From an uncultured Acidobacteriota bacterium (lineage in GTDB: Bacteria > Acidobacteriota > Thermoanaerobaculia > UBA5066): DNA of 64,000 nt. Below are positions 3,228 to 60,790 of this stretch, in pieces; position 1 is the stretch's first letter, and each line of letters starts with the position of its first letter. The notes beneath the pieces were generated by a model that saw nothing but the letters and a program-made list of their open reading frames with translations, was not told the DNA's origin and made no database searches. The DNA lies in NCBI GenBank assembly GCA_963779415.1, contig CAVZYA010000002.1, positions 1,344,001 through 1,408,000 on the forward strand. Direction: 5' to 3'. A program made the position numbers and the translations under genes.

Positions 3228-3282
3228 GCGTGCGCGCCCTCCTTCAGAACATTCGGCCTGCGAAAACGTATTCTCGGGTGCC

Positions 3283-6200: not shown

Positions 6201-6627
6201 CCCCGGTCCGTACCCCAATGCGTCCTTCAACGGACCGATGGTGGCGCTCATCAACGAGTATTCGGCCTCCGACGGCGACATCTTCCCGTACTACTTCCGG
6301 AAATACGGCCTCGGGCCTCTCATCGGCAAGCGGACATGGGGCGGCGTCGTCGGAATCCGGGGCCTCGGCGGCGGGATGGTGGACGGCGGCTACACCTTCG
6401 TCCCGGAGTTCGCGACCTACAGCCTGAAGAGCGAGTGGGTCATAGAGAACGAAGGGGTCCGGCCCGACATCGAGGTGGACAACCTTCCGGCCGACGAGAT
6501 GGCCGGGAAGGACGCGCAGCTTTCGCGCGGCATCGAGGAGATCCTGAAGCGGATCAAGGAGCACCCGCCCGTCTGGCCGCCCGAGCCGAAGCCCCGCGAC
6601 CTCGCGAACCCGGTGCCGAGGAAGTAG
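3283..6627 (+). CDS. Tricorn protease (S41 family; beta-propellers + PDZ), secreted
   Basis: Signal peptide; LLRFPDIHGD, repeated WSPDG propeller motifs, GYIHIPDM, DVRANGGG, SASDGDIF, RTWGG. Confidence 0.93.
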   Translation: MKRAHAAFLSLLALLLTLPAAAAPAEAPAEARLLRFPDIHGDTVVFSHAGDLWSVPASGGMARRLTSGDGLELFPRFSPDGKWIAFTGQYDGSLDVYVMPSEGGEPRRLTWYPSEVNNDRMGFDDMVLGWTPDGKILFRGQRGPLRGFIGEPYVVSPEGGPVERFPLPESGAISFSPDGTRIAYTRIFRDFRSWKRYQGGMAQDVWLYDLGSRSIERITDWPGTDTQPMWIGNAIYFLSDRENWKLNLWKYDLPAKTTTRVTNFTEYDVKWPHAGSGKIVFENGGFLYVLDPATGASTKLSVLLPDDRKLARPRWVKVEDRITSVSLAPGGLRAAVTARGDVFTVPAENGTTRNVTRTEGVREKDAVWSPDGKWIAVISDATGEEELQIVPEDGKGAPTALTSGSSSWSFPPVWSPDSKKLAFADRAMHLWVVDAATKEKALVDTAKIWEISQYSFAPDSRWLAYRKQVDTDFGAIFLWDAGTKTSTQVTPSVVESGDPVFDPEGEYLWFLSDRDIAPTLGEFDTAFTVNRTTRPYALLLKSDGVSPFAPKSDEAKKPDPAGETKEGKEGAKKDEKKPPFRIDLAGLADRVVAFPVPPGDYGRLTAAKGKLFWLSFPPEPLTESEGPPAATLQMFDLEKRKASDLLSNVNGYALAPDGSRLAIRSGKTWAIVEPKEGLKPGDGKLDLSGLAMELDPAKEWVQIFRETWRLYRDFFYLPDMGKIDWTAIRKRYEPLVAHVSHRIDLNYVLAEMAAELGSGHAYVGGGDYPKPERMPVGTLGADLVLDEKSGRWKIARILEGQNWIDSRRSPLTEPGVKVSVGDYLLAVDGHELTSKDEPYRLLAGTVGPTGEKPVAAGGGRTVTLLVNSRPAKEGAHEIVVRPIASEEDLRYFTWVEENRRKVEKETNGRVGYIHIPDMGADGLTEFIRQYYPQLRKEGLIVDVRANGGGFVSQIILERLRRRVEGMEVARNARPGPYPNASFNGPMVALINEYSASDGDIFPYYFRKYGLGPLIGKRTWGGVVGIRGLGGGMVDGGYTFVPEFATYSLKSEWVIENEGVRPDIEVDNLPADEMAGKDAQLSRGIEEILKRIKEHPPVWPPEPKPRDLANPVPRK

Positions 6628-11354: not shown

Positions 11355-12878
11355 TCAGGAGGCCTTCGCCGTCAGCTTCGAGTGCTTCCGGCTGTAAGCG
11401 AAGAAGATCACGAGGCCGATGATCAGCCAGATGACGAGCCGCGCCCATGTGTGCCAGCCGAGATTCGTCATGAGATAGAAGCAGGAGAGGGCCCCGAGAA
11501 TCGGGACGAGCGGCACGAGCGGCGTCCGGAAGGGACGGTGGGTCTCCGGATTCGTCCGCCGGAGGATGATGACCGCGAGACAGACGATGACGAAAGCGAG
11601 GAGCGTTCCGATGTTGACCATCTGGCCGAGGTCGTCGATCGGCGTGAACGCGCCGAGCAGGGCGCAGATCATCCCGACGATCCAGGTCATCTTGAAGGGG
11701 GTCCGGTGGCGTTTGTGGACTTCGCCGAACACTTTCCTCGGCAGGAGGCCGTCGCGCGACATGGCGAAGAAGACCCGTGTCTGTCCGAGGAGCATGACGA
11801 GCATGACCGAGGTGAGCCCCGCGAGCGCCCCGCCGGTGATCAGGAAGACGGCCCAGCCGAGGTGGTAGCTCTCGAAGGCTTGCGCGAGCGGGGCCTTCAG
11901 GTCGATCAGGTTCCACTTCGTCATGCCGGTCAGGACGGCCGCCACCGCGATGTAGAGGACCGTACAGATCAGCAGCGAGCCGATGATCCCGAACGGCATG
12001 TCCTTCTGGGGGTTCTTCGCCTCCTGCGCCGTCGTGGAGATGGCGTCGAAGCCGATGTAGGCGAAGAAGATGTAGGCCGCGCCCGAGGCGATCCCGGCGA
12101 AGCCGTTCGGAGCGAAGTCGGACCAGCTGGCACCCCAGTTCACCGGCTTCACGAAGAAGGCGCCGACGAGGATCACCATGACGACGACCGAAGTCTTGAT
12201 AGCCACGATGCTGGAGTTGAATCGCGCCGATTCCTGGATGCCGACGGCGAGGACCGACGTCACGAGGAGCGCGACGAGGAGGGCGAGAAGGTTGAAGACG
12301 ATCGGGATCCCGAAGAGTTCGGGAGGGGCAGGCCAGGCGTGCCCGTCCGCCACCGCCGCCGCGGCGGCACGGCTGTAGGTGATCCAGTCGTTCGTGAGCC
12401 ACTCCGGAAGGTGGACCCCGAACAGCTTCAGGAACTTCGTGAGGTATCCCGACCACCCGACCGAGACCGTGGCCGCCCCCATCATGTACTCGAGGACGAG
12501 ATCCCATCCGATGATCCACGCGAACAGTTCGCCGAGCGTCGCGTAGGCGTAGGTGTACGCCGAGCCGGCGAGCGGGATCATCGACGCGAACTCCGCGTAG
12601 CAGAGGCCGGCGAAGACGCACGCGATCCCCGAGAGGACGAACGAGAGGACGAGCGCGGGGCCCGCCCCGAGAATCTTCACCGTGCCGTCGGCGTTCATGG
12701 AGCCGTGCGCTCCGATCCCGGTCATGACGAAGATGCCGGCGCCGATGATGGCGCCGATGCCGATCGCGACGAGCGACCAGCGTCCCAGTGCGCGTTTCAG
12801 GCTCTGCTCGCCCTCCTCGACGCTCTCCGCGAGGAGATCGGCAATCGGCTTGACGGCGAAGAGGGAGTTTCGGGACAC
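11355..12878 (-). CDS. APC family amino acid permease (cationic amino acid transporter-like)
   Basis: GAIIGAGIF, LCYAEFAS, GSAYTYAY, FFAYIGFD, EAKNPQKD, MSRDGLLP. Confidence 0.93.
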   Translation of the reverse strand: MSRNSLFAVKPIADLLAESVEEGEQSLKRALGRWSLVAIGIGAIIGAGIFVMTGIGAHGSMNADGTVKILGAGPALVLSFVLSGIACVFAGLCYAEFASMIPLAGSAYTYAYATLGELFAWIIGWDLVLEYMMGAATVSVGWSGYLTKFLKLFGVHLPEWLTNDWITYSRAAAAAVADGHAWPAPPELFGIPIVFNLLALLVALLVTSVLAVGIQESARFNSSIVAIKTSVVVMVILVGAFFVKPVNWGASWSDFAPNGFAGIASGAAYIFFAYIGFDAISTTAQEAKNPQKDMPFGIIGSLLICTVLYIAVAAVLTGMTKWNLIDLKAPLAQAFESYHLGWAVFLITGGALAGLTSVMLVMLLGQTRVFFAMSRDGLLPRKVFGEVHKRHRTPFKMTWIVGMICALLGAFTPIDDLGQMVNIGTLLAFVIVCLAVIILRRTNPETHRPFRTPLVPLVPILGALSCFYLMTNLGWHTWARLVIWLIIGLVIFFAYSRKHSKLTAKAS

Positions 12879-12968
12879 GCTTCGACCTCCGCTACCCGCG
12901 TTTCCGGCTTTCCGGGACCGGGAGACGATAACACCACGCGCATAGAATCAAGACCGGAAGGAGCGCGA

Positions 12969-27283: not shown

Positions 27284-27332
27284 CGCGCCCCGTCATGGCC
27301 CTTCCGGCCCATTTCGATAAGGAGTGAAGAAG

Positions 27333-28673
27333 ATGGCGATGAACGCGGCAGACATCCTGAAGCGCTGCGACAAGGAGGGGGTCCGCTTCCTGAGGCTCAA
27401 ATTCACGGACATCCTCGGCGTCAACAAGAACGTCGAGGTGCCGCGCTCGCAGTTCGAGAAGGCGCTGGATGGCGAGATCCAGTTCGACGGCTCGTCGATC
27501 GAGGGCTTCGTCCGGATCCAGGAATCCGACATGGGCCTCGTCCCGGACCTGAGCACGTTCCAGATCTTCCCTTGGTCACACCCGAACGGTAAGGTCGCCC
27601 GGCTCGTCTGCGACATCATCGAGCCGGACGGCAAGCCTTTCGCCGGCTGCCCTCGTGGAGCGCTGAAGCGGCAGATGGAGAAGGCGAAGGCTCTGGGCTA
27701 TGAGCTGATGACCGGGCCCGAGGCCGAGTTCTTCCTCTTCCGCCGTGACGCCTCCGGCGACCCCGTCGTCGACACGCACGACGAAGGGGGCTACTTCGAC
27801 CTCACGCCCGTCGACCGGGGCGAGGACGCCCGGCGGGACATCGTGGTGGCCCTCGAGGCGATGGGCTTCGAGGTCGAGGCGGCGCACCACGAGGTCGCCC
27901 CCGGTCAGCACGAGATCGATTTCAAGTACGGGAACGCCGTCCACACGGCCGACAACGTCACGACGTTCAAGCTGATCGTCAAGAAAGTCGCCCTCGACCA
28001 CGGCCTCCACGCGACCTTCATGCCGAAGCCGATTTTCGGCGTGAATGGCTCCGGAATGCACGTTCACCAGTCCCTCATGACCGGCTCCGGCGCGAACGTG
28101 AAGAACGCCTTCTTCGACGCGAAAGCGAAGTACCAGCTCTCCGCCGTGGCGATGCAGTACATCGCCGGGGTCCTGAAGCACGCACGCGCCATTTCGGCGG
28201 TGACGAATCCCCTGGTCAATTCCTACAAGCGGCTCGTCCCGGGGTACGAGGCGCCGGTGAACGTGGCTTGGTCCGAGCGCAACCGCTCGCCGATGATCCG
28301 CATTCCGGCCCGCCGCGGCATGGGGACGCGCTGCGAGGTCCGGATGCCCGATCCATCGTGCAATCCCTACCTTGCCTTCACGGTCATGCTGGCGGCCGGC
28401 CTGGACGGCATCAAGAACAAGCTTGAGCCCGGCGACCCGGTCAACGAGAACGTCTTCGAAATGTCCGAGCGCGAGAAGAAGCGCCGCAAGATCGAGCAGC
28501 TCCCGGGCAACCTCTCCGAGGCACTCGACTGCCTCGAGAAGGACGACGTCCTGAAGAACGCGCTCGGCGACCACATCCTGACGAACTTCGTCGAAGCGAA
28601 GCGCTCGGAGTGGCACGAGTACATCAGCAAGGTCAGCGGCTGGGAGATCGAGAAGTACCTGAACAAGTTCTGA
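27333..28673 (+). CDS. glnA: Type I glutamine synthetase (short GSI-alpha-like)
   Basis: FDGSSI, HHEVAPGQHE, ATFMPKP, NGSGMH, NSYKRLVPGYEAP; SD AAGGAG 27319-27324. Confidence 0.97.
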   Translation: MAMNAADILKRCDKEGVRFLRLKFTDILGVNKNVEVPRSQFEKALDGEIQFDGSSIEGFVRIQESDMGLVPDLSTFQIFPWSHPNGKVARLVCDIIEPDGKPFAGCPRGALKRQMEKAKALGYELMTGPEAEFFLFRRDASGDPVVDTHDEGGYFDLTPVDRGEDARRDIVVALEAMGFEVEAAHHEVAPGQHEIDFKYGNAVHTADNVTTFKLIVKKVALDHGLHATFMPKPIFGVNGSGMHVHQSLMTGSGANVKNAFFDAKAKYQLSAVAMQYIAGVLKHARAISAVTNPLVNSYKRLVPGYEAPVNVAWSERNRSPMIRIPARRGMGTRCEVRMPDPSCNPYLAFTVMLAAGLDGIKNKLEPGDPVNENVFEMSEREKKRRKIEQLPGNLSEALDCLEKDDVLKNALGDHILTNFVEAKRSEWHEYISKVSGWEIEKYLNKF

Positions 28674-47675: not shown

Positions 47676-50168
47676 TTAGTCCTTCGCCTGGGCGACGGTC
47701 TCCTGCATCTGCTTCCGCTCCTCGGCCGTCAACTGGTTCGCTCCGAGCTTGAAGGTGAGCTTGTTGATCGTGCCGGTGAACGGGAACGGAGAATCGTAGC
47801 GATACTCCAGCAGCGCGACGCCAGTGCGCGTGTCCGATCCGATGTCTAAGGTCTCATCCTCCGGGAATGTGATCGGCGTCGTGTGCTCCATGATGTTCCG
47901 GGCCACTTCCTGGCCGTCCACGGAGAGCACGCCCGTCCCGCCCTTGCCCAGGCCCGGGCCGTCGGACTTGAAGTCGAAGACGATGGTATGCCTGCCGGCG
48001 GCGAGCTCCGGCCCGTCCCACACCGTGCGCTTGAGGTCGAGCAGGTTGTAGAGGAAGACCGGCTTGCCCCGGCCGATTCCGAACTCGCCCTTGCTGAGAA
48101 AGAGCCCGTAGCCGCCGAAGCGCCCCCCGTCGGTGACGATCATCCCTTCCGCGCCTCCATCGGGGATCGTGACCTCGGCGGTGATGGTGTACGACTTGTT
48201 CAGGATGCTCGGGGCGCCGCTGTTCGGGACGCCCGTCAGCGTTCCCGTGTAGGTGAAGACCGTTCGTCCCCCTGTGAGGTTCGGCTTCGGCGCGTTCCAG
48301 CGCGTCAGGGACGAGTTGTCGAGTGGCAGCACGTCATGCTTCTTCGCCTCCAGATAGAAGAGGGACTGCATCTGCTTGAGCTTCTCCGGCATCCGGGCTG
48401 CCAGGTCGTCGGATTCGGTGGGATCCTCCTTGACGTTGTAGAGCTCCCACTTGTACCCCGTGATCACGTCGGGCGGCTTGGCCGTGCTCAGCTCCCACGG
48501 GAGCGTCGCCGGGGTCGTGGCCGCCACCCAACCGTCGTGGTAGATGGCGCGGTTGCCGAGCATCTCGAAATACTGCGTGGTATGCCTTGTGGGCGCGTTG
48601 GCGTTCGCCTGGTCCCAAGAATAGGCCATGCTCACGCCGTCCATCGGGCGCTGCTTAATGCCGTCGAGCGTGTCCGGCAACGGGATGCCGCTCGCCTCGA
48701 GGATGGTCGGAGCAATGTCGATGAGATGGTGAAACTGGCGGCGGATGCCGCCCGCGTCGTTGATGTGGCCGGGCCACGACATGGCCATGCCCTGGGCGGT
48801 GCCGCCGAAGTGCGACGCCACCTGCTTCGTCCACTTGAACGGCGTGTCCATCGCCCACGACCAGGGTGCCGCAAAGTGCGGGAAGGTTCGCTCGGACCCC
48901 CAGAACTCGTACCAGAGAAGCTGGTCCTTGACGGGCACTTCAACGCCATTGAAGGTGGTGAACTCGTTCGGTGTGCCGTTGAGCATCCCTTCAGGGCTCG
49001 CGCCATTGTCGCCCGCGATGTAGATGATCAGGGTGTTGTCGAGCTGGCCGAGGTCTTCGACCGCCTGGATGACGCGACCGATCTCGTAATCGGTGTACGC
49101 GAGGTACGCCCCGTAGACCTCCGCCTGCTTGATGAACAGCTTCTTCTCCACGAACCCGAGGGAATCCCACTCCGGCAGCTCCTTCGGCCAGGGGGTCAGC
49201 TTGGCGTTCGGAGGCATGATGCCGAGCCGCTTCTGGTTGGCGAAGATCGTCTCGCGCAGCTTGTTCCAGCCGCCGTCGAAGAGGTGCATGTCGCTGATCT
49301 TCTTGATCCACTCCGGCGTCGGATGATGTGGCGAGTGGGTGCCGCCCGGCACGTAATAGACGAGGAACGGCTTTTCGGGCGCGATCTCCTTGAGTTCCTT
49401 CATGTACCGGATCGCCTCGTCGGCCATGGCGGTGGTCAGGTTCCAGCCCGGTTTGCCCTGGAACGGGTAGATGGCCGTCGTGTTGCGGTAGAGGTTCGGC
49501 TGCCACTGGCTGGCGTCGCCGCCGACGAAGCCGTAAAAGTACTCGAAGCCCATGCCGTTCGGCCACTGGTCGAAGGGCCCGGCCTGGGTCGATTGGTAGA
49601 AGGGCGTGTTGTGGTCCTTGCCGAACCACGACGTCGCGTACCCGTTCTCCCTCAGGATGGTGCCGATGGTGCCGTTCTCCTTCCGGATGACCGAGTCGTA
49701 TCCCGGGAATCCCGTCGCAATTTCGCCCACCACTCCGAAGCCGGCCACGTGGTGGTTGCGCCCGGTGATCAAGGCCGCGCGCGAGGGCGAGCAGAGCGAC
49801 GTGGAGTGGAAATTCGTGTAACGCAGCCCGTTCTTCGCGATGCGATCCATGGCCGGTGTCGGAACGACGCCGCCGAACGTGCCCGGCGCGCCGAACCCGC
49901 TGTCGTCGGTCATGATGAGGAGCACGTTAGGCGCGCCCTTCGGCGGCACGACGCGCGGTGCCCACCACGCTTTCGACTCCGAGGCCTTTTCCTTGATCAC
50001 CCCGCCGAATTTCGGATCGGGCGGCGGAAGCTGTTTCCCGCTGATCGTGGCGGTGGCGCCGGGCGAACCGGGCGTGCCGGTCACCTGCTGTGCGAGGCCG
50101 GACGAGGAAGAGAGCGTAAAGGCGACACCGGAGACCGCGAGGGCGACGACCAGCTTGGCTGCCTTCAT
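47676..50168 (-). CDS. Arylsulfatase (Cys-type), secreted
   Basis: PNVLLIMTDD, CSPSRAALITGR, FGKDH, GDNG; signal peptide. Confidence 0.93.
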   Translation of the reverse strand: MKAAKLVVALAVSGVAFTLSSSSGLAQQVTGTPGSPGATATISGKQLPPPDPKFGGVIKEKASESKAWWAPRVVPPKGAPNVLLIMTDDSGFGAPGTFGGVVPTPAMDRIAKNGLRYTNFHSTSLCSPSRAALITGRNHHVAGFGVVGEIATGFPGYDSVIRKENGTIGTILRENGYATSWFGKDHNTPFYQSTQAGPFDQWPNGMGFEYFYGFVGGDASQWQPNLYRNTTAIYPFQGKPGWNLTTAMADEAIRYMKELKEIAPEKPFLVYYVPGGTHSPHHPTPEWIKKISDMHLFDGGWNKLRETIFANQKRLGIMPPNAKLTPWPKELPEWDSLGFVEKKLFIKQAEVYGAYLAYTDYEIGRVIQAVEDLGQLDNTLIIYIAGDNGASPEGMLNGTPNEFTTFNGVEVPVKDQLLWYEFWGSERTFPHFAAPWSWAMDTPFKWTKQVASHFGGTAQGMAMSWPGHINDAGGIRRQFHHLIDIAPTILEASGIPLPDTLDGIKQRPMDGVSMAYSWDQANANAPTRHTTQYFEMLGNRAIYHDGWVAATTPATLPWELSTAKPPDVITGYKWELYNVKEDPTESDDLAARMPEKLKQMQSLFYLEAKKHDVLPLDNSSLTRWNAPKPNLTGGRTVFTYTGTLTGVPNSGAPSILNKSYTITAEVTIPDGGAEGMIVTDGGRFGGYGLFLSKGEFGIGRGKPVFLYNLLDLKRTVWDGPELAAGRHTIVFDFKSDGPGLGKGGTGVLSVDGQEVARNIMEHTTPITFPEDETLDIGSDTRTGVALLEYRYDSPFPFTGTINKLTFKLGANQLTAEERKQMQETVAQAKD

Positions 50169-50204
50169 GCGAGGCTCCTTTGTTTCGATCTGGATTCTTT
50201 CATG

Positions 50205-50710
50205 TCAGAGATCGGAGCGGGTCTCGAGCAGTCTCTTCCGCGTGTAGGCGATCAGGCCGCCGGCGTCGATGATCGCCTGCCGGGCTGCCGGGAGCGGGAC
50301 GACGGCCAACGACTCTTCCCGGTCGTCCGGTTGATGACGCGGTCGCCCGCGACCTCGAGCTCGTCGCCGACCGACGCCTCGAGGTCCGGGGGCCGTGACG
50401 ACGTGAAGGCCGAGGTTGATCGCGTTCTGGAGGAAGATCCGGGCGAAGCTCCTTCGCCACGATCGTCAGCTCGTACCCCTTGAGCGCGGAGACGGCCTGC
50501 TCGCGGGAGGAGCCGCAGCCGAAGTTCTTCCCGCCGACGAGGATCGACCCGGCGGGGAACTCCTTCGCCCTCAGCCGCGCGTTGAAGCCGGCGTCGTCGG
50601 CGAACGCGAACTGCGGCGTCTCGGTCGGGAGGACGGTCGCCATGTAGCGGCCGGGGTAGATGACGTCGGTGGAGACGTCGTCGCCCGAGGACGCAGACGA
50701 CCTTCGCCAT
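50205..50710 (-). CDS. LeuD/HacB-type aconitase small subunit (frameshifted in this assembly)
   Basis: GDDVSTDVIYPGRYM, GKNFGCGSSREQA, FARIF..NAINLG, IIDAGGL across frames. Confidence 0.85.
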
Positions 50711-50711
50711 C

Positions 50712-52017
50712 TCAGCGCGCTCCCTTCCGCGGGTCGGTGATGACGCCCGCCACGGCCGAGGCCGCGGCGACGGCGGGAGAGCAGAGGTAGACCTCGGAGG
50801 TCGGGGTTCCCCATCCGCCCCTTGAAGTTCCGGTTCGTCGTGGAGAGGGCGACCTCGCCGTCCCCGAGCGCCCCCTCGTGGACGCCGAGGCAGGGGCCGC
50901 AGCCGGCGTTCATGACGACGGCGCCCGCCGCGCATGAAGTCGGCGATGTAGCCTCTTCGCCAGCGCCTCCTGCTAGATCCTGCCCGGAGGCGGGGAAGAC
51001 GAGCATCCGGGTCCCCGCGGCGACCTTCTTCCCGCGGAGGACGTCGGCCGCGGCGGCGAGGTCGTCGAGCCGGCCGTTCGTGCAGGAGCCGATGACGACC
51101 TGGTGGACCCTGACCCCTTCGACCGCCTCGACCGGCTTGACGTTGTCGACGGTGTGCGGGCAGGCGATCTGCGGCCCGAGAGCGGAGACGTCGACCTCGA
51201 GGACCCGCTCGTAGACCGCGTCGGCGTCCGGGGACGACGAGGTCGAGCGGGTCCGTGACGCCCGCTTCCTCGCGGAGGTAGCGGAGCGTCTCGTCGTCGG
51301 CGGGGACGATGCCCGACGTGGCCCCCGCCTCGACCGACATGTTGCAGAGGACGAGGCGGCCCGAGGTCGGACATCTTCCGGATCGTCTCGCCGTGGAACT
51401 CGAGCACCCGGAAGTTCGCCCCCTGCGCGCGTGAGCTTGCCGATCAGGTGGAGGATCAGGTCCTTCGGGCCGACGAAACGGCGGGAAGTCGCCCGTTCAC
51501 GACGACCTTGATCGTCGTCGGCACCTCGACGTTCAGGGCGGCGCCGAGCGCCCAGACGCTCGCCATCTCGGTGGCGCCGATGCCGAACGCGAAAGCGCCG
51601 AGCGCCCCGTGGCTCGTCGTGTGCGAGTCGGTCCCGACGACGACCTGGCCCGGGCCGGACGTAGCCGTACTCGGGAAGGATCTGGTGGCAGATGCCGCCG
51701 TGTCGCCCCGGATGTCGTGGAACCGGGCGATCCCGTGCTGCGGCGACGAACTGCGCGGACTTTCTTCTGGTTCGTCGCGGTCTTCGGCGACTCGGCCGGG
51801 ATCCGGTGGTCGAAGATGATCGCGATCCGCGACGGGTCCCAGACCTTCGGCGTCGCGCCCGGTCCCCTTCGTAGATCTCGAGGAACTGGTTGATGACGAG
51901 CGCGGCGTTCTCGTGCGACATCGCGAGGTCGACGCGCGGCTCGACGACGTCCCCCGCCTTCGCGCCGCGGGCGCCCGCGGCGCGGGCCAGGATCTTTTCG
52001 ACGACGGTCTTGCCCAT
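50712..52017 (-). CDS. LeuC/HacA-type aconitase large subunit (frameshifted in this assembly)
   Basis: [53 protein letters not shown]. Confidence 0.9.
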
Positions 52018-52046
52018 GTGGTGCTCTCCCTGTCGACGGATCTCCT

Positions 52047-53271
52047 TCAGACGACTTCCGCTCGATCGCTCTTCCTCAGCTCGGCGATCTCCTCCGCCGC
52101 GTAGCCGAGGCCGCCGAGGATCTCCTCCGTGTGCTGGGCCCCGAGGCGCGGAGGCGGCGCGTCGATACGCGCCCGGGCGTCCTTCGAGAACTGCGCGGTC
52201 AGGTTGAAGAGGGGGAGGTCGCCGATCGCCGGGACGCGTCGACGGTCCGCAAGCGTCCTCCGGTGGGCGACCTGCGGCTGCGCGAGCGCCTCCGCGAGCG
52301 TGAGGATCGCGCCCGAGGGGACGTCGTGCGCGTTGAGCGCCTCGACCCACTCGGCCGTCGGCCTGCTCCGCGAGCTTCTCCTCGAGGAGCGGCGTCAGAG
52401 CCTGCCGGTTCTTCTTCCGCGTGTCGCGCTCGGCGAAGCGCGGGTCGGCCTTCAGCTCCGGCACGCCGAGGACGTCGGCCACCGCCTCCCACTGCTCCTG
52501 CTTGTTGGCGGCGATGTTGATCGTAGCCGTCCTTCGTGCGCGAACGTCCCCGACGGCGCGGCGGTGAAGTTGTCGTTCCCGAGCAGCGACCGGCGGCTGC
52601 CCGCCGATCAGGAGGTTCGCGGCGACCCAGCCCATCAGCGGCATGATCGAGTCGAGAAGAGCGACGTCGATCATCTGCCCCTCGCCCGTCCTCTCGCGGT
52701 GGAAGAGGGCGGCCATGACGGCGAAGGCCGCGTTCAGCCCTCCGACGGTGTCGCAGACCGGAAATCCGGCGCGGAGCGGGTTCAGCCGCTCGTCGCCGTT
52801 GACGGCCATCTCGCCGGAGAGCCCCTGGATGATCTGGTCGTAGGCGGGCTTCTCGCGCGTCGGGGCCGGTCTGGCCGAAGCCGGAGATCGCGCAGTAGAC
52901 GAGGCGCGGGTTGACCTCGCCAGGCCTCGTACGCGAGGCCGAGCCGCTTCATGACGCCGGGGCGGAAATTCTCGACGAGGACGTCGGCCTGTCGCGAGCG
53001 AGCCTCCGGAAGACCTCGCGCCCCTCGGCGCGTCTTCAGGTTCAGGGTCACCGACTTCTTGTTCGCGTTCTGGGCGAGGAAGCTCGTCCCCATCAGCTCC
53101 TTGTTCAGCTTCGGGACGTTCCCCAGCTTCCGCGCGAGGTCGCCGTCTGTCGGGTTCTCGATCTTGATCACCTCGGCCCCGAGGAGGGCGAGGTGGAGCG
53201 TCGCGAAGGGGCCCGAGAGGACGTTCGTCAGGTCGAGGACGCGGACTCCCTCGAGGAGCCTTCTTCGTCAT
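52047..53271 (-). CDS. Class III CoA-transferase (CaiB/BaiF) (frameshifted in this assembly)
   Basis: VLDLTNVLSGPF, GAEVIKIE, NANKKSVTLNLK, VENFRPG, AYDQIIQGLSG. Confidence 0.88.
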
Positions 53272-54220
53272 GCCGTCCCCCGCGCCGGGGCGGCCGCTGC
53301 GGGACCGGCCCGGTCTTGTGGACGCGCCCCGGCATCTCGCGGCCGAAGAAGGCCGCGACGTCGCGGGCGACGTCCGATCAGGGCGGCGAGGTCGACGTCG
53401 CGTGCGGAGATCCATCCGCTGGAGGGCGTGGACGAGGTCTTCGGTCGCGACGTTCCCGGCCGCGACCTTCGTGAACGGGCAGCCGCCGAGCCCGGCGAAG
53501 GAGGACTCGAACGACGTGACGCTCCGGCGCGCGAGGGCGGCGAAGACGTTCGCCATCCCGACCCCGTAGGTGTCGTGGAAGTGGCAGGCCGCCTCGATCC
53601 CGGGCGCGAGGGCGAGGAGACCGCGAGTAGAGGCGGGTCACCTGCGCCGGGTGCGCGTGCCCGGCCGTGTCGGCGAGGCTGATCTGCAGGAGCCCCGCGT
53701 CGACGTAGGCGCGGGCAGATACCGAGAACCCGCTCCTCGGGAACCGGCCCTTCGTAAGCCGCAGCCGAAGGCCGACTGGACGGAGACCTGGACGGGCTTT
53801 CCGGCGGCGAGCGGCCTCATTCGCCATCGCAAGGATCCGCCGCGTCGCCTCCTCGGTCCCCATGCCCGTGTTCTTCCGGCTGTGCGTCTCGCTGGCGGAG
53901 ACGCCCATGCAGAACAGCTCGACTCCGCGGCGAGGCCGCGCTCGAGCCCCTTCTCGTTCAGGACGAGAGCCCGAGAGGAGGGCGCGTCCGTCCCGGCGCG
54001 CCGTCGCGTCCTGAGGCGGCGGAAGAGCGCATCGGTGTCGGCCATCTGCGGGACCTTCCCCGGGTGGACGAAGGAGCCCACCTGCACGACGTCGAGGCCC
54101 GAAGCCGAGAGCCGCGCGATCCAGTCGGCCTTCGTCTCCGTCGGCACGACGCGTCTTCTCCACCTGCAGGCCGTCGCGAGGCCCGACCTCGTGGAGGACG
54201 ATCTTCCGCGTCGGATCCAC
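53268..54220 (-). CDS. HMG-CoA lyase-like DRE-TIM metallolyase (frameshifted in this assembly)
   Basis: EVGPRDGLQ, SFVHPGKVPQMAD, SLADTAG, HFHDTYG, GLGGCPF, GNVATED. Confidence 0.88.
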
Positions 54221-54232
54221 GTCGGCGGCGCC

Positions 54233-55358
54233 TCAGAGGGCCCGGGCGACGGCTTCGCCCATCTCGAGCGTCGTCGCTTTTCCGCCCATGTCGTACGTCC
54301 GGACCTTCCCCTCGGCGACGACCTTCGCGACGGCCGCCTCGACGCGGCGCCCCTTCTCCCCCTCGCCGAGCCAGTCGAGCATCATCTTCGCGGCGAGGAT
54401 CGTGGCGAGCGGGTTGACCTTGTACTGCCCGGCGTACTTCGGCGCCGAGCCGTGCGACGGCTCGAAGACCGCCAGCTTCTCGCCGATGTTCCCCGAGCAG
54501 CCGAAGCCGAGGCCGCCCACCATCTGGGCCGCGAGGTCCGAGATGATGTCGCCGTAGAGGTTGGGCGCCACGAGGACGTCGTACTCGAACGGGTTCTTGA
54601 GGAGCCACATGCAGATGGCGTCGACGTTCGCGTCGTCCGTCGCGATGTCCGGGAACTCGGCGGCGACCTTTCGTCGCCTCCTCGAAGAAGAGGCCGTCGG
54701 ACGCGCGGACGACGTTCGCCTTGTGGACGATCGTCACCTTCTCGCCGCCCGTGCTTCCGTGGCGAACTCGTAGGCGGCCCGGGCGATCCGCGAGGAGCCC
54801 TTCCGCGTGTTCACCTTGCAGGAGATCGCGTACTGCGTCGCGCGGGCAGCGGGGCGAAGGGCGCGAACGGCCTTCGAGAGCTTCGCGAGGACGCCCGAGA
54901 GCTCGAGCGGGACGGGCGAGAACTCGACCCCCGCGTAGAGGTCCTCGGTGTTCTCGCGGAAGATGACGAGGTCGATCCCGTCCTTGAGGTTGAGCGGATT
55001 CCCCGGGTAGGCCTTGCAGGGCCGCAGGCAGACGTAGAGGTCGAAGAGCTGCCGCATCCGGACGATCGGGGAGCGGTAGGTGAGCCCCTTCCCCTTCAGC
55101 TCCGGGACGAGCTCTTCCTCGGCCGCGCTGACCGGCTTCGAGGTGATCGCCCCGAACATCGCCGCGTCGACGTTCCGGAGGAGGTCGACGGTCCGCTGCG
55201 GGGAACGCGTCCCCCTCCCGGCGCCAGAACTCCCAGCCGATGTCGCCGTGCGGGTAGACGGCGTCGAGCTTCAGCGCGTCGAGGACGAGCCGCGCCGCCT
55301 CCATCACCTCGACGCCGACGCCGTCTCCCGGCAGCCAGGCGATCCGGTACTGACTCAT
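54233..55358 (-). CDS. Isocitrate/isopropylmalate dehydrogenase family, homoisocitrate-DH-like (frameshifted in this assembly)
   Basis: LPGDGVGVEV, FGAITS, YRSPIVRMRQLFDLY, RENTED, HKANV, NLYGDIISD, FEPSHGSAP. Confidence 0.88.
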
Positions 55359-55409
55359 CGAAAAGCTCCCCCGCGCCCCTTCGGGAGGCGCCTTCCGAAG
55401 CGTCGCCGG

Positions 55410-55446
55410 GCCACGATCCATGGTCCATGAGCCAGATGGCTCATGG
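55410..55446. promoter_or_regulatory. Putative operator: perfect 22-bp palindrome with 7-bp periodic repeats
   Basis: CCATGAGCCA-GA-TGGCTCATGG (55425-55446); CCACGAT/CCATGGT/CCATGAG/CCAGATG heptamers. Confidence 0.55.
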
Positions 55447-55470
55447 CCGGAGCGCCCCTTGGTTGCGACC

Positions 55471-56953
55471 TCACCAGGGGAGGCCGCGGATCTCCCGCGC
55501 GCGGCGGTAGACGGCGTCGTACGCGGAGGCGGAACGGTCCCACGAGAAGTCCTGCGCCATGCCGTTCGCGATCAGGCGGCTCCACGCGCCGGGGTGATGG
55601 AAGAGCCCCTGCGCCCGGAGGATCTCGGCGGCCAGCTCGTGCGAGGCGGGGTTCTCGAAGACGAAGCCGGTGCCGCGGTCGAGGTTTTGGCCGTCGAAGC
55701 CCGCGACGGAGTCCGCGAGACCGCCGACGCGCCGGACGATCGGAGGCGTCCCGTAGGCGAGCGAGTACATCTGGTTCAGGCCGCACGGCTCGAAGCGCGA
55801 CGGCATGACGTAGGCGTCCGATCCGGCCTCGATCTTGTGGGCCAGCTCCTCGCTGTAGCCGACGAAGGCGGCGGCGCGCCCGGGGTGCTGCGCCGCGAAC
55901 CGGCGGATCGCATGCTCGAGCTGCGGCTCGCCCGTGCCGAGAAGGACGATCCGGACGCCCCGGCGGATCAGCTCGGGCGCGGCCCCCATGACGAGGTCGA
56001 AGCCCTTCTGGTCGGTCAGCCGGCCGACGGAGCCGAGGACCATTCCGGTGTCGTCCGGGTCGAAGCCGGCGATCCGGCAGAGGTCTCGCCGGCAGAGCGG
56101 CTTGCCCGAGAGGTCGGTGAGCGAGTAGCGCGCGGCGATGGCGTCGTCGACGGCGGGATTCCAGACGTCCGTATCGACGCCGTTCAGGATTCCGACGAGC
56201 CGGTCGCTCCGCATCCGGAGAATCCCGTCGAGGCCGGCGCCTCCTTCGCGCGTCGTGATCTCCCAGGCGTAGGTGGGCGAGACCGCCGTGATCATGTCGG
56301 CCGCCACGATCGCCCCCTTGAGGAGGTTGACGGCACCGGCGAACTCGATCGCCCCGCCCGTCCACGCCTCCGGCGGGAGGCCGAGCGCCCGGAACTCCTC
56401 CGGGCCGTAGACCCCCTGGTAGGAGACGTTGTGGATCGTCAGGACCGAAGCGACGTCGTCGAACCAGCGGTCGCGCCAGCTGCTCCAGGCCCCCAGCATG
56501 ACGGCGAGAGCGGGGTGCCAGTCGTGCGTGTGGAGGATCTGGGGGCGCCGACCCATCCGCCTCATCGCCTCGATCGCGGCCCGGACGAAGACCGTGAACC
56601 GCCAGAGCCCGTCGTCGCGCCCCGAGGCGTCCGGCGCATAGATCCGGGTCCGGTGGAAGAGCGGGTCGTGCGCCACGAAGAAGACGGGGACCGTGCTTCC
56701 CGGAAGCGTTCCGCGGAGAAGGCCGATCGTGTAGGCGCGGCCGAGGACGGAGACCTCGAACGGGGGGATCGCCTGCTCGGGCCAGGTCGAGCCTCCGGCG
56801 ATACCAGTCCGCGGTCTCGAGGTGGAACGGGAGGAAGACGTCGACGTCGTGCCCGCGGGCCGCCTGGGCCTTCGGGAGCGCGCCGACGACGTCGCCGAGG
56901 CCTCCCGTCTTCGCGAATGGAACGCACTCGGCAGAGAGGTGCGTGATCCTCAC
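55471..56953 (-). CDS. glgA: Glycogen synthase (frameshift near 56790)
   Basis: AECVPFAKTGGLGDV, HTHDWH, LTIHN..YQG, TAVSPTYA, MPSRFEPCGLNQ. Confidence 0.92.
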
Positions 56954-58667: not shown

Positions 58668-59401
58668 CTAGCCCGGAGGAGGCCCCTCTTCCTCCTCTTC
58701 GGGGCTCTCGGGCGCGGACGGAGGACCGAAGGCGCGCTCCTCGATGAGCGCCGCGCGGCGCCGGTGCGCGGCGGGATGGGCGAGGTAGTACGCCGGACCC
58801 GGGATCATCGCCGCGAGCCATGCGGCCTGCGGACCTCGTCAGGCGCGCGGCCGGGACGCCGAAGGTGTTTCGGGCGGCGGCCTCGATCCCGAAGACCCGC
58901 TCGCCCCACTCGACGGCCGAGAGGTAGTGCTCGAGGATCTTCTCCTTCGGGACGAGGGCGTCGAGGACGAGGGCGATGGCGGCCTCGCGCCCCTTCCGGA
59001 AGAGCGACCGGTCGGAGGAGAGCCAGAGGTTCTTCGCGAGCTGCTGCGTGATCGTCGAGGCCCCGTGCCTCCACCGCCCTTTCCGGCCGGCGATCTTCCG
59101 GTTCCACCGGGCCGCTTCGCGGACGGCCTCCCAGTCGATCCCCCGGTGCTGGAAGAAGCGCGCGTCCTCGGCGGCGACGACGGCCTCGACGAGGGCGGGC
59201 GCGACGTCGCGGAGGGGAACGGGGCGCCGGTCGATGGCGTCGCTCTTCCCGGCCGCGCGAAGCGCCGCCTGCCGCGCCCGGATGAAGGCCGTCGTCCGCG
59301 GGCACGCGCCACCGGAGGGCCACGATCGCCGGAAGCGGCACGAACCAGAGCGCCCCCGCGAGAGCGAGCGCGACCGCGAGAAGAGCGCCGGGACGCTTCA
59401 G
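58668..59401 (-). CDS. mtgA: Monofunctional peptidoglycan transglycosylase (frameshifted in this assembly)
   Basis: AEDARFFQHRGID, GASTITQQLAKNL, RKGRE, KEKILEHYL; start approximate. Confidence 0.85.
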
Positions 59402-60747
59402 CCGACCGTCTCTGCGAGAGCCGCCCGCAGCCTCTGGACGCCGAGGAGCGCTTCGTCCTTCGTCAGCGTGAGCGGAGGCCGGAGGCGGATGGCCTTCTCG
59501 CCCGAGGCGAGGGCCATGACGTTGTGCTTCCGGAGCCACGTCGCGAGGACGTCCCCCCGGGTCTTTCCGTCGGGGAGGTCGAACGCGATGAAGAGCCCGC
59601 GGCCGCGGACGTTCGTCATCCGGCCCGGGAACTCGGCGGCCAGCTCCTCGAGCCGCGCCTTCAGGAACTCTCCGACGACGCGCGCGTTCTCGATGAGGTT
59701 CTCCTCCTCGATGATCTCGAGGAATCGTCGGCAGCGGATCATGTCGACGAGGTTCCCGCCCCACGTCGAGTTGATCCGCGACGAGACGGCGAAGACGTTC
59801 TCCGGCTCCTCGAGGATCCGGTCGTTCGACGCGAAGCCGCAGACCTGAGTCTTCTTCCCGAAGGCGAAGAGGTCCGGCGTAACGCCCATGGCCTGGAATC
59901 CCCACCAGTGGCCGGTCAGACCCATCCCCGTCTGGACCTCGTCCATGAGGAAGAGCATGTCGTTCTCGTCGCAGAGCTCCCGCAGCGTCCGGAAGAACTC
60001 GGGGCGGAAGTGGTTGTCGCCTCCCTCGCCCTGGATCGGCTCGATGATGAGGGCGGCGATGTCGTCGCGATGGTCGACGAGGGCCTGCCGGATCTGCGCC
60101 TCGGCGATCCGCTCGCCGGCGACCGTCCGCTCGAGGCTCTCGGGAGTGAGGGGGAAGACGAGCTTCGGGTTGGTGACCCGCGGCCAGTCGAACTTCGGGA
60201 AGTACATCGTCTTTCGCGGGTCCGCCGTGTTCGTCAGCGAGAGCGTGTAGCCCGAGCGTCCGTGGAACGCCTGCTCGAAGTGGAGGATCTTCGTCCCCAC
60301 CTCGCGCCGGTAGCCCTTGCGGAAGTTCTTCCGTACCTTCCAGTCGAACGCCGCCTTGAGCGCATTTTCGACGGCGAGGGAGCCCCCTTCCACGAAGAAG
60401 AGGTGCCTGCCGTGGCTCTTCGGAACCGCGAGGCGGGCGAAGGTCTCCACGAAAGCGGCCATCTCGCACGTGTAGATGTCGCTGTTGGCCGGCTTGTTGA
60501 CGGCGGCGCCGGTCAGCTCCTCCAGGAACTCCGGCGACGTCATCTTCGGGTGGTTGTAGCCGATCGGGCAGGTGGCGAACTGCGAGAAGAAGTCGAGCAC
60601 CTCGACGTCGTGCAGGGAGTCGTAGAGGACGTTCCCGCGCGACCTCTTCAGGTCCATGACGACGTGATAGCCGTCCACCAGCATGTGCCGGGAGAGGCTC
60701 GCAAGGACACTCTTCGACTCGATGACGGAGGGGGCGAGGGAGGCCAT
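59398..60747 (-). CDS. lat: L-lysine 6-aminotransferase
   Basis: HMLVDG, KPANSD, LAVENALKAAFDWK, AFHGRSGY, EPIQGEGGD, FGKK, RINSTWGG. Confidence 0.92.
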   Translation of the reverse strand: MASLAPSVIESKSVLASLSRHMLVDGYHVVMDLKRSRGNVLYDSLHDVEVLDFFSQFATCPIGYNHPKMTSPEFLEELTGAAVNKPANSDIYTCEMAAFVETFARLAVPKSHGRHLFFVEGGSLAVENALKAAFDWKVRKNFRKGYRREVGTKILHFEQAFHGRSGYTLSLTNTADPRKTMYFPKFDWPRVTNPKLVFPLTPESLERTVAGERIAEAQIRQALVDHRDDIAALIIEPIQGEGGDNHFRPEFFRTLRELCDENDMLFLMDEVQTGMGLTGHWWGFQAMGVTPDLFAFGKKTQVCGFASNDRILEEPENVFAVSSRINSTWGGNLVDMIRCRRFLEIIEEENLIENARVVGEFLKARLEELAAEFPGRMTNVRGRGLFIAFDLPDGKTRGDVLATWLRKHNVMALASGEKAIRLRPPLTLTKDEALLGVQRLRAALAETVG

Positions 60748-60790
60748 AGCGGGCGGATTCTATCCCGGCGGAAGGGGCGGCGCCGCGCCG

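Follow-up and report, generated by a model that had tools for sequence, protein, structure and literature searches.

In the upper alpha-aminoadipate pathway, an aconitase-family isomerase and a beta-decarboxylating dehydrogenase act on a homologue of citrate. Chloroflexus aurantiacus uses a family III coenzyme A (CoA)-transferase (succinyl-CoA:(R)-citramalate CoA-transferase, Sct, EC 2.8.3.20) and a lyase ((R)-citramalyl-CoA lyase, Ccl, EC 4.1.3.46, a member of the 3-hydroxy-3-methylglutaryl-CoA (HMG-CoA) lyase family) to split a 2-substituted malyl-CoA to acetyl-CoA and a 2-oxoacid. Citrate lyase (CitDEF) and citryl-CoA synthetase/lyase follow the same logic, with thioester activation and then retro-Claisen cleavage to an acetyl unit and a 2-oxoacid. 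Here we describe a five-gene operon at positions 50205 to 55358 of a 64,000-nucleotide stretch of DNA (the window) from an uncultured Acidobacteriota bacterium. The window corresponds to G000:C2:1344001-1408000, and genome G000 comprises 4.36 Mb in three contigs and is 92% complete. Judging from its gene content, the operon is likely to encode a pathway for the CoA-dependent interconversion of an alkylmalate or citrate homologue. Its role is probably catabolic or amphibolic, that of an elongation module run backwards in which a thioester-conserving cleavage would replace the synthase.

Six-frame translation of positions 50100-55500 of the window gave five co-oriented genes on the minus strand (55358-50205), designated DH, LY, CT, LC and LD. 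In the window they are readable only as pieces in shifting frames:

54233..55358, minus strand: DH, Iso_dh-family beta-decarboxylating dehydrogenase with an NADP-type pocket; frameshifted in assembly
53264..54220, minus strand: LY, HMG-CoA-lyase-family (DRE-TIM) acyl-CoA lyase; frameshifted in assembly
52047..53270, minus strand: CT, family III (CaiB/BaiF) CoA-transferase; frameshifted in assembly
50712..52017, minus strand: LC, archaeal-type LeuC/HacA-family large subunit of an aconitase-family hydro-lyase; frameshifted in assembly
50205..50709, minus strand: LD, LeuD/HacB-family small subunit with loop (Y/F)MATV and GSSRE motif; frameshifted in assembly

The gene set named by an earlier sequence-only reading of this DNA (pieces of an Iso_dh dehydrogenase, an HMGL-like protein, a family III CoA-transferase and LeuC-like and LeuD-like proteins) was recovered in this translation. 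The motifs quoted there were all located in the window frames, namely KIVLHEVGPRDGLQ, CHFHDTYG and AGLGGCPF of the lyase, LTYRSPIVRMRQLFDLYVCLRP of the dehydrogenase and STDVIYPGRYMATV of the small subunit. The dehydrogenase and small-subunit segments may resemble motifs of fungal Lys12 and Lys4, as proposed there. Also borne out was that no LeuA/CimA/homocitrate synthase gene lies within the operon; the sole synthase-type HMGL match in the genome is a canonical leuA, 273 kb away. In the orthologous loci L010 and L011, the CT start overlaps the LY stop.

Family scores were obtained with the intact orthologues of the relative locus L010, and no NCBIfam equivalog model was passed by any of the five proteins. 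DH (L010:1501-2616) matched Pfam Iso_dh with 304 bits and stayed below the NADP isocitrate dehydrogenase (IDH) equivalog cut-off (282 versus 510 bits). Its nearest solved structures are an NAD-IDH (6ltf, 237 bits), the homoisocitrate dehydrogenase (HICDH) of Thermus (1x0l/3asj, 235-236 bits) and that of S. pombe (3ty3, 198 bits). Solved isopropylmalate dehydrogenases (IPMDHs) scored only 150-177 bits, i.e., DH is closer to HICDH than to IPMDH. DH and LC also fell below the leucine-biosynthesis equivalogs (TIGR00169, 199 versus 353 bits; TIGR00170, 251 versus 560 bits). The large subunit LC matched Pfam Aconitase with 340 bits, PRK00402 with 539 (cut-off 385) and hacA_fam with 513 (cut-off 386); for LD the scores were 37 bits on Aconitase_C and 107.5 bits on LEUD_arch (cut-off 108.95). 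CT matched Pfam CoA_transf_3 with 425 bits over profile positions 1-366 of 366. Its best NCBIfam match was succinate-glutarate CoA-transferase (308 bits, below the cut-off of 750), its nearest solved structure was succinate-hydroxymethylglutarate CoA-transferase (9br6, 267 bits), and it had no NCBIfam match to CitE, CitF or citryl-CoA lyase at E values up to 1e-5.

The genome holds separate, canonical counterparts of these enzymes. An ilv-leu cluster on C2 at 1.665-1.677 Mb (leuC, ilvD, ilvC, leuA, leuB, ilvA) contains leuB (445 bits) and leuC (614 bits), and an NADP-IDH, an AcnA-type aconitase and a true HMG-CoA lyase are also present. DH is 33% identical to the IDH of its own genome and 32% to its LeuB, and LC is 36% identical to LeuC. 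The sequence-only reading had named grouping with canonical LeuB/LeuC, with leuA elsewhere, as an outcome that would count against it; leuA is indeed elsewhere, with its own leuB and leuC, and DH and LC are distant paralogues of these, so this outcome does not refute the reading. LY matched Pfam HMGL-like (PF00682, 136 bits) and PRK05692 (277 bits, above the HMG-CoA lyase subfamily cut-off of 246). Since the genome has a separate HMG-CoA lyase scoring 403 bits on the same model (G000:C1:822440), to which LY is 41% identical, LY is a paralogue and not an HMG-CoA lyase orthologue. The nearest solved structure of LY is 1ydo, with HMG-CoA lyases scoring 205 bits. Residues R15, D16, H212, H214 and C245 were invariant in a nine-sequence alignment; the Arg-Asp of GPRDGLQ, the HxH motif and the Cys of GLGGCP presumably serve catalysis and metal binding. 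A clade-specific change places GCGFEG where B. subtilis HMG-CoA lyase has GCPYE.

In family f1, 12 genomes could be aligned over the entire 5.1 kb, with DNA identities of 81-87%, and in five further genomes the operon is in pieces, cut by contig ends. Genus g4 and G033 have DH-LC-LD adjacent; LY-CT is located elsewhere in G019 and G024, whereas G010, G022 and G033 had no listed LY-CT match. In G015, G016, G020 and 15 of 16 genomes of the two sister families, the matches obtained were of paralogue level only. A pattern scan in which each species was represented by a single genome yielded 411 LY relatives, and the best 80 of these (57-100% identity) were taken as the locus set. Its members come from more than 10 phyla (among them Acidobacteriota, Gemmatimonadota, Latescibacterota, Ignavibacteriota, Fibrobacterota, Elusimicrobiota, Zixibacteria, Calditrichota, Anaerolineae, Eisenbacteria, GN15 and proteobacterial metagenome-assembled genomes (MAGs)) and include the cultured Geothrix fermentans DSM 14018 (L089). 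The best database matches of LY are named as MAGs of Holophagales and Thermoanaerobaculia, which marks the source organism as an acidobacterium. Across the 80 loci, LY was clustered in 78, CT in 61, DH in 54, LC in 53 and LD in 49, counts that are lowered by contig ends and by antisense frames picked in place of genes. An uninterrupted five-gene string was present in 26 loci, and core genes lay on both strands in none. Gene order, which the sequence-only reading had proposed to survey, was kept in 78 of the 80 loci (exceptions L064 and L077). This recurrence and the alignment over 12 related genomes are far more than chance would give, and the operon is a conserved unit. Note that genomes in all tallies given here are related and that ratios are not statistical tests, that “not found” applies to the model used and the assemblies searched, and that the unpublished genomes G025 and G030 are counted in the tallies over 41 relatives, although they are never the sole basis of a claim.

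For distribution within the phylum we used an even set of 301 Acidobacteriota genomes, all at least 85% complete (including G025, G087 and G184, which likewise carry no claim by themselves). LY-type lyase was found in 52 of them, G000 itself being missed owing to its frameshifts, and DH homologues in 135, which fall into three tiers of identity to DH (tier 1, at least 70%, 55 genomes; tier 2, 59-64%, 30 genomes; tier 3, 48-61%, 50 genomes, split from tier 2 by score). These data bear on the view that two unrelated pairs lie side by side, CT and LY salvaging free 3-hydroxy-3-methylglutarate (HMG) in the manner of SUGCT and HMG-CoA lyase while DH and LC/LD do another job. Such an arrangement would suit the nearest solved structures of CT and LY and the subfamily score of LY, as well as the DH-LC-LD sets without adjacent LY-CT in genus g4 and G033, the loci that have LY-CT but not the other three genes, and the acetoacetate-type CoA-transferase subunits found upstream of DH in one Elusimicrobia locus. 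We nevertheless regard it as quite improbable: a single order prevails across phyla, 48 of the 52 LY-bearing genomes also have a tier-1 DH, and a better-scoring HMG-CoA lyase is encoded separately. Moreover, HMG has no carboxylate on its carbinol carbon and should therefore not be chelatable by an aconitase-family enzyme, so the two pairs would share no intermediate.

Proposed reactions and substrate

In the proposed pathway, DH would reductively carboxylate a 2-oxoacid with NADPH and CO2 to a 3-substituted malate, which the iron-sulfur hydro-lyase LC/LD would convert to the 2-substituted malate. CT would transfer CoA from succinyl-CoA or acetyl-CoA onto this acid, and LY would cleave the CoA ester to acetyl-CoA and a 2-oxoacid one carbon shorter than that at the start. 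The likeliest series would run from 2-oxoadipate through homoisocitrate, homocitrate and homocitryl-CoA to 2-oxoglutarate and acetyl-CoA, and a neighbouring 2-oxoacid:ferredoxin oxidoreductase (OFOR), where present, could regenerate succinyl-CoA from the 2-oxoglutarate. Because the thioester would be passed on and not hydrolysed, the steps after carboxylation should lie near equilibrium. We put forward the homocitrate series in the cleavage direction as a tentative assignment, in which confidence falls a little short of even.

The main reason for preferring a tricarboxylate substrate and the cleavage direction is that three unrelated pairs of activation and lyase enzymes occur beside the same dehydrogenase/aconitase core. 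Three of four third-tier loci examined, from three families, hold a cluster with the following composition:

L132, L133, L134 (G321, G263, G285): PrpD/homoaconitase/DH/CitE/CitF cluster, with genes for an MmgE/PrpD-like protein, a fused homoaconitase, DH, a CitE-like protein with an N-terminal extension of ~115 residues, and a CitF-like protein

The fused homoaconitase exceeds the TIGR00139 cut-off (726 bits, above 530) and has the loop YPGSYTYRDD; the CitE-like and CitF-like proteins score below theirs (268 bits, below 443, and 482 bits, below 501, respectively). This cluster is a second, non-homologous synthase-less homocitrate-type operon. In the second-tier genome G062 (L130, G062:C30:3100-20200), DH stands with two LC/LD pairs, one of them with loop YTYTV, SucC-like and SucD-like subunits, and a citryl-CoA lyase (NF004866, 289 bits, above 245), a set that may carry out citryl-CoA-synthetase-type cleavage of citrate or homocitrate. 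A further locus (L135, G289:C4:288000-305100) has a DH with the exact helix YRSPIVRMRQ, LD with loop FLNIT, LC, and a PrpB/PEP-mutase-family lyase-like gene, a fourth pairing of the core with a carbon-carbon lyase.

Residues of DH bear on both direction and substrate. Its cofactor loop reads HGSAPKY in 47 of 48 matched orthologues (6 were unmatched), which aligns Lys-Tyr with K344/Y345 of E. coli IDH; the NAD-dependent Thermus HICDH has Asp-Ile here. In E. coli IDH, Lys344 and Tyr345 set NADP specificity and Ser113 and Asn115 contact the gamma-carboxylate of the substrate; LeuB and AksF are NAD-dependent. DH is thus predicted from this motif to use NADP(H), which is unusual for elongation-pathway dehydrogenases and fits the reductive carboxylation direction. 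The substrate helix is RSPIVRMRQ (YRSPIVRMRQ) in 51 of 54 orthologues, the other three being unmatched by the pattern, compared with RSLNVALRQ in E. coli IDH, AIRYLRR in Thermus HICDH and EAGLLALR in the LeuB of the same genome. The Ser113 equivalent is kept, and Ile takes the place of Asn115 in each of the 51 matched DHs. Arg, Ser and Arg are invariant where LeuB has its Glu and Leu-Leu signature.

These features also raise the citrate version of the pathway, in which 2-oxoglutarate, CO2 and NADPH would give isocitrate, then citrate and citryl-CoA, and finally acetyl-CoA and oxaloacetate. It would be a thioester-dependent citrate cleavage without ATP-citrate lyase and with succinyl-CoA as donor, serving glutamate/2-oxoglutarate catabolism or a variant of the reductive tricarboxylic acid (TCA) cycle. 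The DH helix is locally most like that of E. coli-type NADP-IDH (51 bits versus 26 for S. pombe HICDH), with which it shares the KY cofactor motif, and an NAD-IDH is the nearest full-length solved match. In G211 (L126, one contig, 2.3 Mb), a 62%-identical DH homologue is the only Iso_dh match, alone among housekeeping genes, and may be that organism's IDH; such a protein fits isocitrate as well as homoisocitrate. The sister cluster in G062 combines SucCD-like subunits with citryl-CoA lyase, a pair responsible for citrate cleavage in Hydrogenobacter, and adjoining OFOR genes could supply 2-oxoglutarate from succinyl-CoA. We still consider citrate unlikely, given that the Asn115 equivalent is Ile throughout and that the LD loop is without positive charge at the recognition-loop position where aconitase has Arg. 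Citrate synthase was found in all five genomes tested (G000, G003, G008, G021 and G019), and an AcnA-type aconitase and canonical NADP-IDH in the four searched (G000, G008, G021 and G017). The sole equivalog-level call in a sister cluster is one for homoaconitase and not for aconitase.

The recognition loop of LD aligns as YMATV with YLVYT of the M. jannaschii isopropylmalate/citramalate isomerase (3vba), YLRTT of M. jannaschii homoaconitase (2pkp) and YNLTK of P. horikoshii LeuD (1v7l). MATV and GSSRE are invariant in 49 of 49 LD orthologues. The uncharged loop, and the fact that 3vba is the best solved match of LD (106 bits, versus 86 for the homoaconitase subunit), draw attention to an alkyl-malate substrate. 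Either (R)-citramalate/3-methylmalate (2-oxobutyrate to and from pyruvate plus acetyl-CoA) or isopropylmalate (2-oxoisocaproate to and from 2-oxoisovalerate plus acetyl-CoA) would then be processed, in threonine, methionine, propionate or leucine catabolism, with CT and LY acting like the Chloroflexus pair. An HMGL-family lyase with a family III CoA-transferase is presumably the make-up of that pair. A four-subunit OFOR adjoins the operon in four loci (directly upstream in the Ignavibacteriota-type loci L076, L088 and L106; on the other side and on the opposite strand in L046) and in a fifth locus lies 6 kb away. Its alpha subunit passes the VorB subfamily (547 bits, cut-off 399). Against such a substrate, DH is without the Glu and Leu-Leu signature of LeuB and is closer to solved IDH and HICDH than to IPMDH, the sister clusters use citrate-type cleavage enzymes, and no Chloroflexus locus is among the best 80 of 411 LY relatives. 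We therefore rate the alkyl-malate version as improbable, somewhat more so than citrate.

Returning to the reverse homocitrate route, several of these observations count against it. The loop (Y/F)MATV is without the Arg of the homoaconitase loop YLRTT (we assume a role in recognition for this residue, Arg26), is unlike the YTY(Q/R/T) of homoaconitase-type proteins in the sister clusters, and is nearest in character to the uncharged YLVYT; the helix similarity to NADP-IDH, the lone DH homologue of G211 and the VorB-type OFOR, which is also consistent with branched or short 2-oxoacids, point the same way. The HICDH equivalog cut-off was not reached by DH, whose best NCBIfam match was AksF2 (341 bits, cut-off 540), with AksF at 293 versus 500 and iso_homocit_dh at 186 versus 680. 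Nor were homoaconitase equivalogs reached by LC and LD (HacA_Meth, 463 versus 550 bits; HacB/HacB2, 92/99.5 versus 230; TIGR00139, 235 and 55 versus 530); LC passed only the broad homoaconitase subfamily hacA_fam. Reductive carboxylation, furthermore, should be uphill under standard conditions. In one respect the loop comparison is softened, since the P. horikoshii LeuD with loop YNLTK is reported to be able to stand in for a subunit of homoaconitase (PMC7308503), and the loop rule thus has exceptions. The reverse route advanced in the sequence-only reading has thus gained support as to direction, from the NADP-type motif and the cleavage enzymes of the sister clusters; homocitrate is only a putative substrate, the loop YMATV matching neither known homoaconitase type.

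Amino-acid metabolism in carrier genomes

A forward, biosynthetic role had been offered earlier as the alternative, with lyase and transferase taking the place of the hydrolytic synthase. Such a split, thioester-conserving synthase would serve isoleucine synthesis via citramalate, leucine synthesis, or lysine synthesis via aminoadipate. Its enzyme logic would be that of LeuABCD, CimA and the aminoadipate pathway, and oxidative decarboxylation should pull the reactions in this direction. Within the 301-genome sample, ilvC was found in 141 genomes, made up of 25 of the 52 with LY and 116 of the other 249. The 27 LY-bearing genomes in which ilvC was not found span 10 families, and none of them is less than 90% complete. 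In genus g2, three species (G008, G021 and G023, each 96% complete) had no leuA-, leuB- or leuC-type match, no long-form ilvA, and no ilvC or ilvD; they keep an intact operon nonetheless, under purifying selection (ratio of nonsynonymous to synonymous substitution rates, dN/dS, of 0.15 for the operon between G008 and G021). Another member of this genus, G017, has both the ilv-leu genes and the operon. Across the 80 loci, no operon was found to include a LeuA/CimA/homocitrate-synthase-type gene, nor was any such synthase found in G008, G021 and G023. lysA exceeded its cut-off in G000 and throughout g1 and g2, the one exception being G002, a 65% complete genome with a partial match (190.9 bits versus a cut-off of 297.9).

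It follows from the ilv-leu and ilvC results in operon carriers, together with the presence of lysA, that the module is neither dependent on nor needed for branched-chain or lysine biosynthesis. G000 carries leuA, leuB, leuC and ilvA of its own, and the DH motif is NADP-type, unlike the NAD-type Thermus HICDH. No ilv, leu or lys biosynthesis gene is among 99 annotated neighbour proteins in the 80 loci, neighbour lists that are incomplete because the GC3 gene caller missed genes and called antisense frames. A biosynthetic role is therefore unlikely, and the specific scheme of a forward split synthase very improbable indeed. Two related ideas were dropped: a dedicated isoleucine route, on account of ilvA beside leuA in G000 and the ilvC results, and replacement of citrate synthase by the operon, on account of the citrate synthase found in five of five genomes. 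As an observation apart, the ilv-leu supercluster was apparently lost within genus g2, G017 (like G000) having all genes and three species none that were found, and ilvC was not found across whole families, e.g., 0 of 22 in f31. Branched-chain auxotrophy may be common in Acidobacteriota, or these lineages may have a divergent enzyme.

If the pathway consumes 2-oxoadipate, a link to lysine catabolism might be expected, and a lysine transaminase gene lies near the operon in the window:

59401..60759, minus strand: L-lysine 6-transaminase (LAT family), intact; TIGR03251 620.5 bits (cut-off 520.8), Pfam Aminotran_3; G000:C2:1403416-1404711

LAT is encoded 4 kb upstream on the same strand, with mtgA (monofunctional transglycosylase), an unknown gene and glgA in between, and G003 shares this order. 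Across the sample, LAT was found in 101 of 301 genomes (31 of 52 with LY, 70 of 249 others), an equivalog-level piperideine-6-carboxylate dehydrogenase (P6CDH) in 29 of 52 versus 82 of 249, and both together in 21 of 52 versus 34 of 249. With a tier-1 DH as the marker, LAT occurred in 36 of 55 genomes versus 65 of 246 others, and LAT or P6CDH in 44 of 55 versus 113 of 246. One Anaerolineae MAG (L095) has a DAO-family oxidase and P6CDH (769 bits, cut-off 730) directly upstream of DH, an arrangement seen in none of the other 79 loci.

Other results loosen this link. Three unrelated genes stand between LAT and the operon, and in some relatives LAT is unlinked (630 kb from the operon in G021; on other contigs in G008 and G019). 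When family f41 is left out, LAT was found in 14 of 32 LY-bearing genomes (background 28%) and LAT plus P6CDH in 5 of 32 (background 14%). Neither gene was found in 11 of the 55 genomes with a tier-1 DH. In G000 and its genus no equivalog-level P6CDH was found, only a generic aldehyde dehydrogenase of 382 bits, and the sister clusters showed no enrichment of LAT or P6CDH. Tight coupling to P6CDH was dropped as an idea, in view of the counts above and of 10 of 32 with f41 left out. Thus the co-occurrence with lat that the sequence-only reading had suggested surveying does exist, LAT being enriched in module-bearing genomes, and is carried largely by family f41. The lysine-catabolic association is a real but weak signal, confounded by relatedness, and LAT in the window may be a loosely linked feeder gene or its position may be coincidental.

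Sequence integrity and neighbouring genes

Frameshifts had been suspected earlier, and alignment of the window operon with eight orthologous loci (MAFFT) confirmed them. The window carries 48 private indels in 5.15 kb, mostly single inserted letters and 43 of them not multiples of three; the orthologous loci carry only 0-3 private indels each, i.e., they are near-intact. Genes flanking the operon (55 to 64 kb) are equally indel-dense, with 4-27 per kb, counting private indels supported against at least two of four same-genus genomes, whereas the 1.4 kb of the neighbouring sulfatase open to comparison had none. When the window was read in the frame of its orthologue, dN/dS for the operon was 0.24 against G003, compared with 0.18 between two intact orthologues, and skipping the private insertions left a single in-frame stop in 1662 codons. 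No public sequencing run contained more than 0.15 of the sampled words, and the source strain was thus not found among them. Contigs of four public wetland/sediment runs lack the single letters at 50803, 52522, 52539, 52587, 54674 and 55197, all sites of private insertions in the window; these are short pieces from relatives, not shown to be the same strain, and were used only for the missing letters.

Pseudogenisation of the operon was dropped, given the equally dense indels in the flank, the dN/dS of 0.24 and the near-intact orthologous loci. From the same three results we conclude that the window frameshifts most likely arose as errors of long-read assembly and not through decay of the operon; its genes in this organism are probably functional. 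Single-base indels also occur in glgA, the mtgA region, and the GGDEF and BatD genes, and elsewhere in the genome in ilvA, leuA and acnA. The sulfatase and lat frames are unbroken, so that error density across the assembly is very uneven.

Directly downstream of the operon is the intact sulfatase (window 47679-50204, minus strand, 830 aa). Its DNA is 89% identical to that of G003, where it occupies a distant site (G003:C1:510239-513081) and an Asp/Glu-racemase-family gene follows the operon instead, indicating a local rearrangement relative to the sister genome. Elsewhere in the window are genes for a tricorn-protease-like peptidase (2878-6624, plus strand), an amino-acid permease (11358-12947, minus strand) and a glutamine synthetase (27321-28670, plus strand), which fit a lifestyle based on peptides and amino acids. 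Among the 80 loci, a GcvA-type LysR regulator is divergent from the operon in 7, and neighbours other than those described are mostly housekeeping genes.

Comparison with known systems

No description of the gene set or of a reverse homocitrate route was found in full-text literature searches, and the terms “homocitryl-CoA” and “isopropylmalyl-CoA” returned 0 papers. The broadest reading of our results, which we think possible but less likely than not, is an undescribed reverse, thioester-conserving chain elongation that acts on a tricarboxylate in more than 10 phyla and evolved at least three times, with unrelated activation/lyase enzymes (HMGL-type lyase plus family III CoA-transferase; CitE/CitF-like; SucCD-like ligase plus citryl-CoA lyase) around one dehydrogenase/aconitase core. 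If so, the cultured Geothrix fermentans and numerous uncultured bacteria of soils, wetlands and sediments would share a conserved, unannotated central-metabolic route. With homocitrate as substrate, it would give 2-oxoadipate derived from lysine a new, widespread fate that avoids glutaryl-CoA; with citrate, it would be an ATP-citrate-lyase-free cleavage that could close the reductive TCA cycle in lineages thought to be without one. Automatic annotation labels the genes “HMG-CoA lyase”, “CaiB”, “isopropylmalate dehydratase” and “isocitrate dehydrogenase”. Models of metabolism built on such labels would wrongly credit these organisms with leucine biosynthesis or ketone-body steps, and would miss a route by which carbon of lysine or glutamate reaches acetyl-CoA with the thioester retained. 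Unrelated lyase systems around the same core make for a concrete hypothesis, testable in a culturable organism and with five clonable genes.

Each of the known systems resembles the operon in part. With the upper alpha-aminoadipate pathway it shares the type of isomerase and dehydrogenase, DH being among the nearest relatives of the solved Thermus and S. pombe HICDHs and the sister clusters including an equivalog-level homoaconitase. It differs in having a CoA-transferase and an HMGL-family lyase instead of a synthase, an NADP-type and not an NAD-type motif, a proposed direction that is degradative, and no protein that passes a HICDH or homoaconitase equivalog. The Chloroflexus enzymes (the reversible lyase EC 4.1.3.46 with the CoA-transferase EC 2.8.3.20) are named in a review (PMC8307300) as a theoretical indirect route to (R)-citramalate; the operon adds LeuCD-like and IDH-like genes to such a pair, and its substrate is probably a tricarboxylate. 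Both citrate-type systems, CitDEF and citryl-CoA synthetase/lyase, have relatives that adjoin homologues of the operon's core in other Acidobacteriota, whereas LY and CT belong to unrelated families (DRE-TIM and CaiB). HMG-CoA lyase (EC 4.1.3.4) and SUGCT are the closest solved structures of LY and CT, and LY keeps the GPRDGLQ, HxH and GLGGCP motifs; LY is, however, a 41%-identical paralogue of the true HMG-CoA lyase of its genome, set among operon partners that make no sense for HMG.

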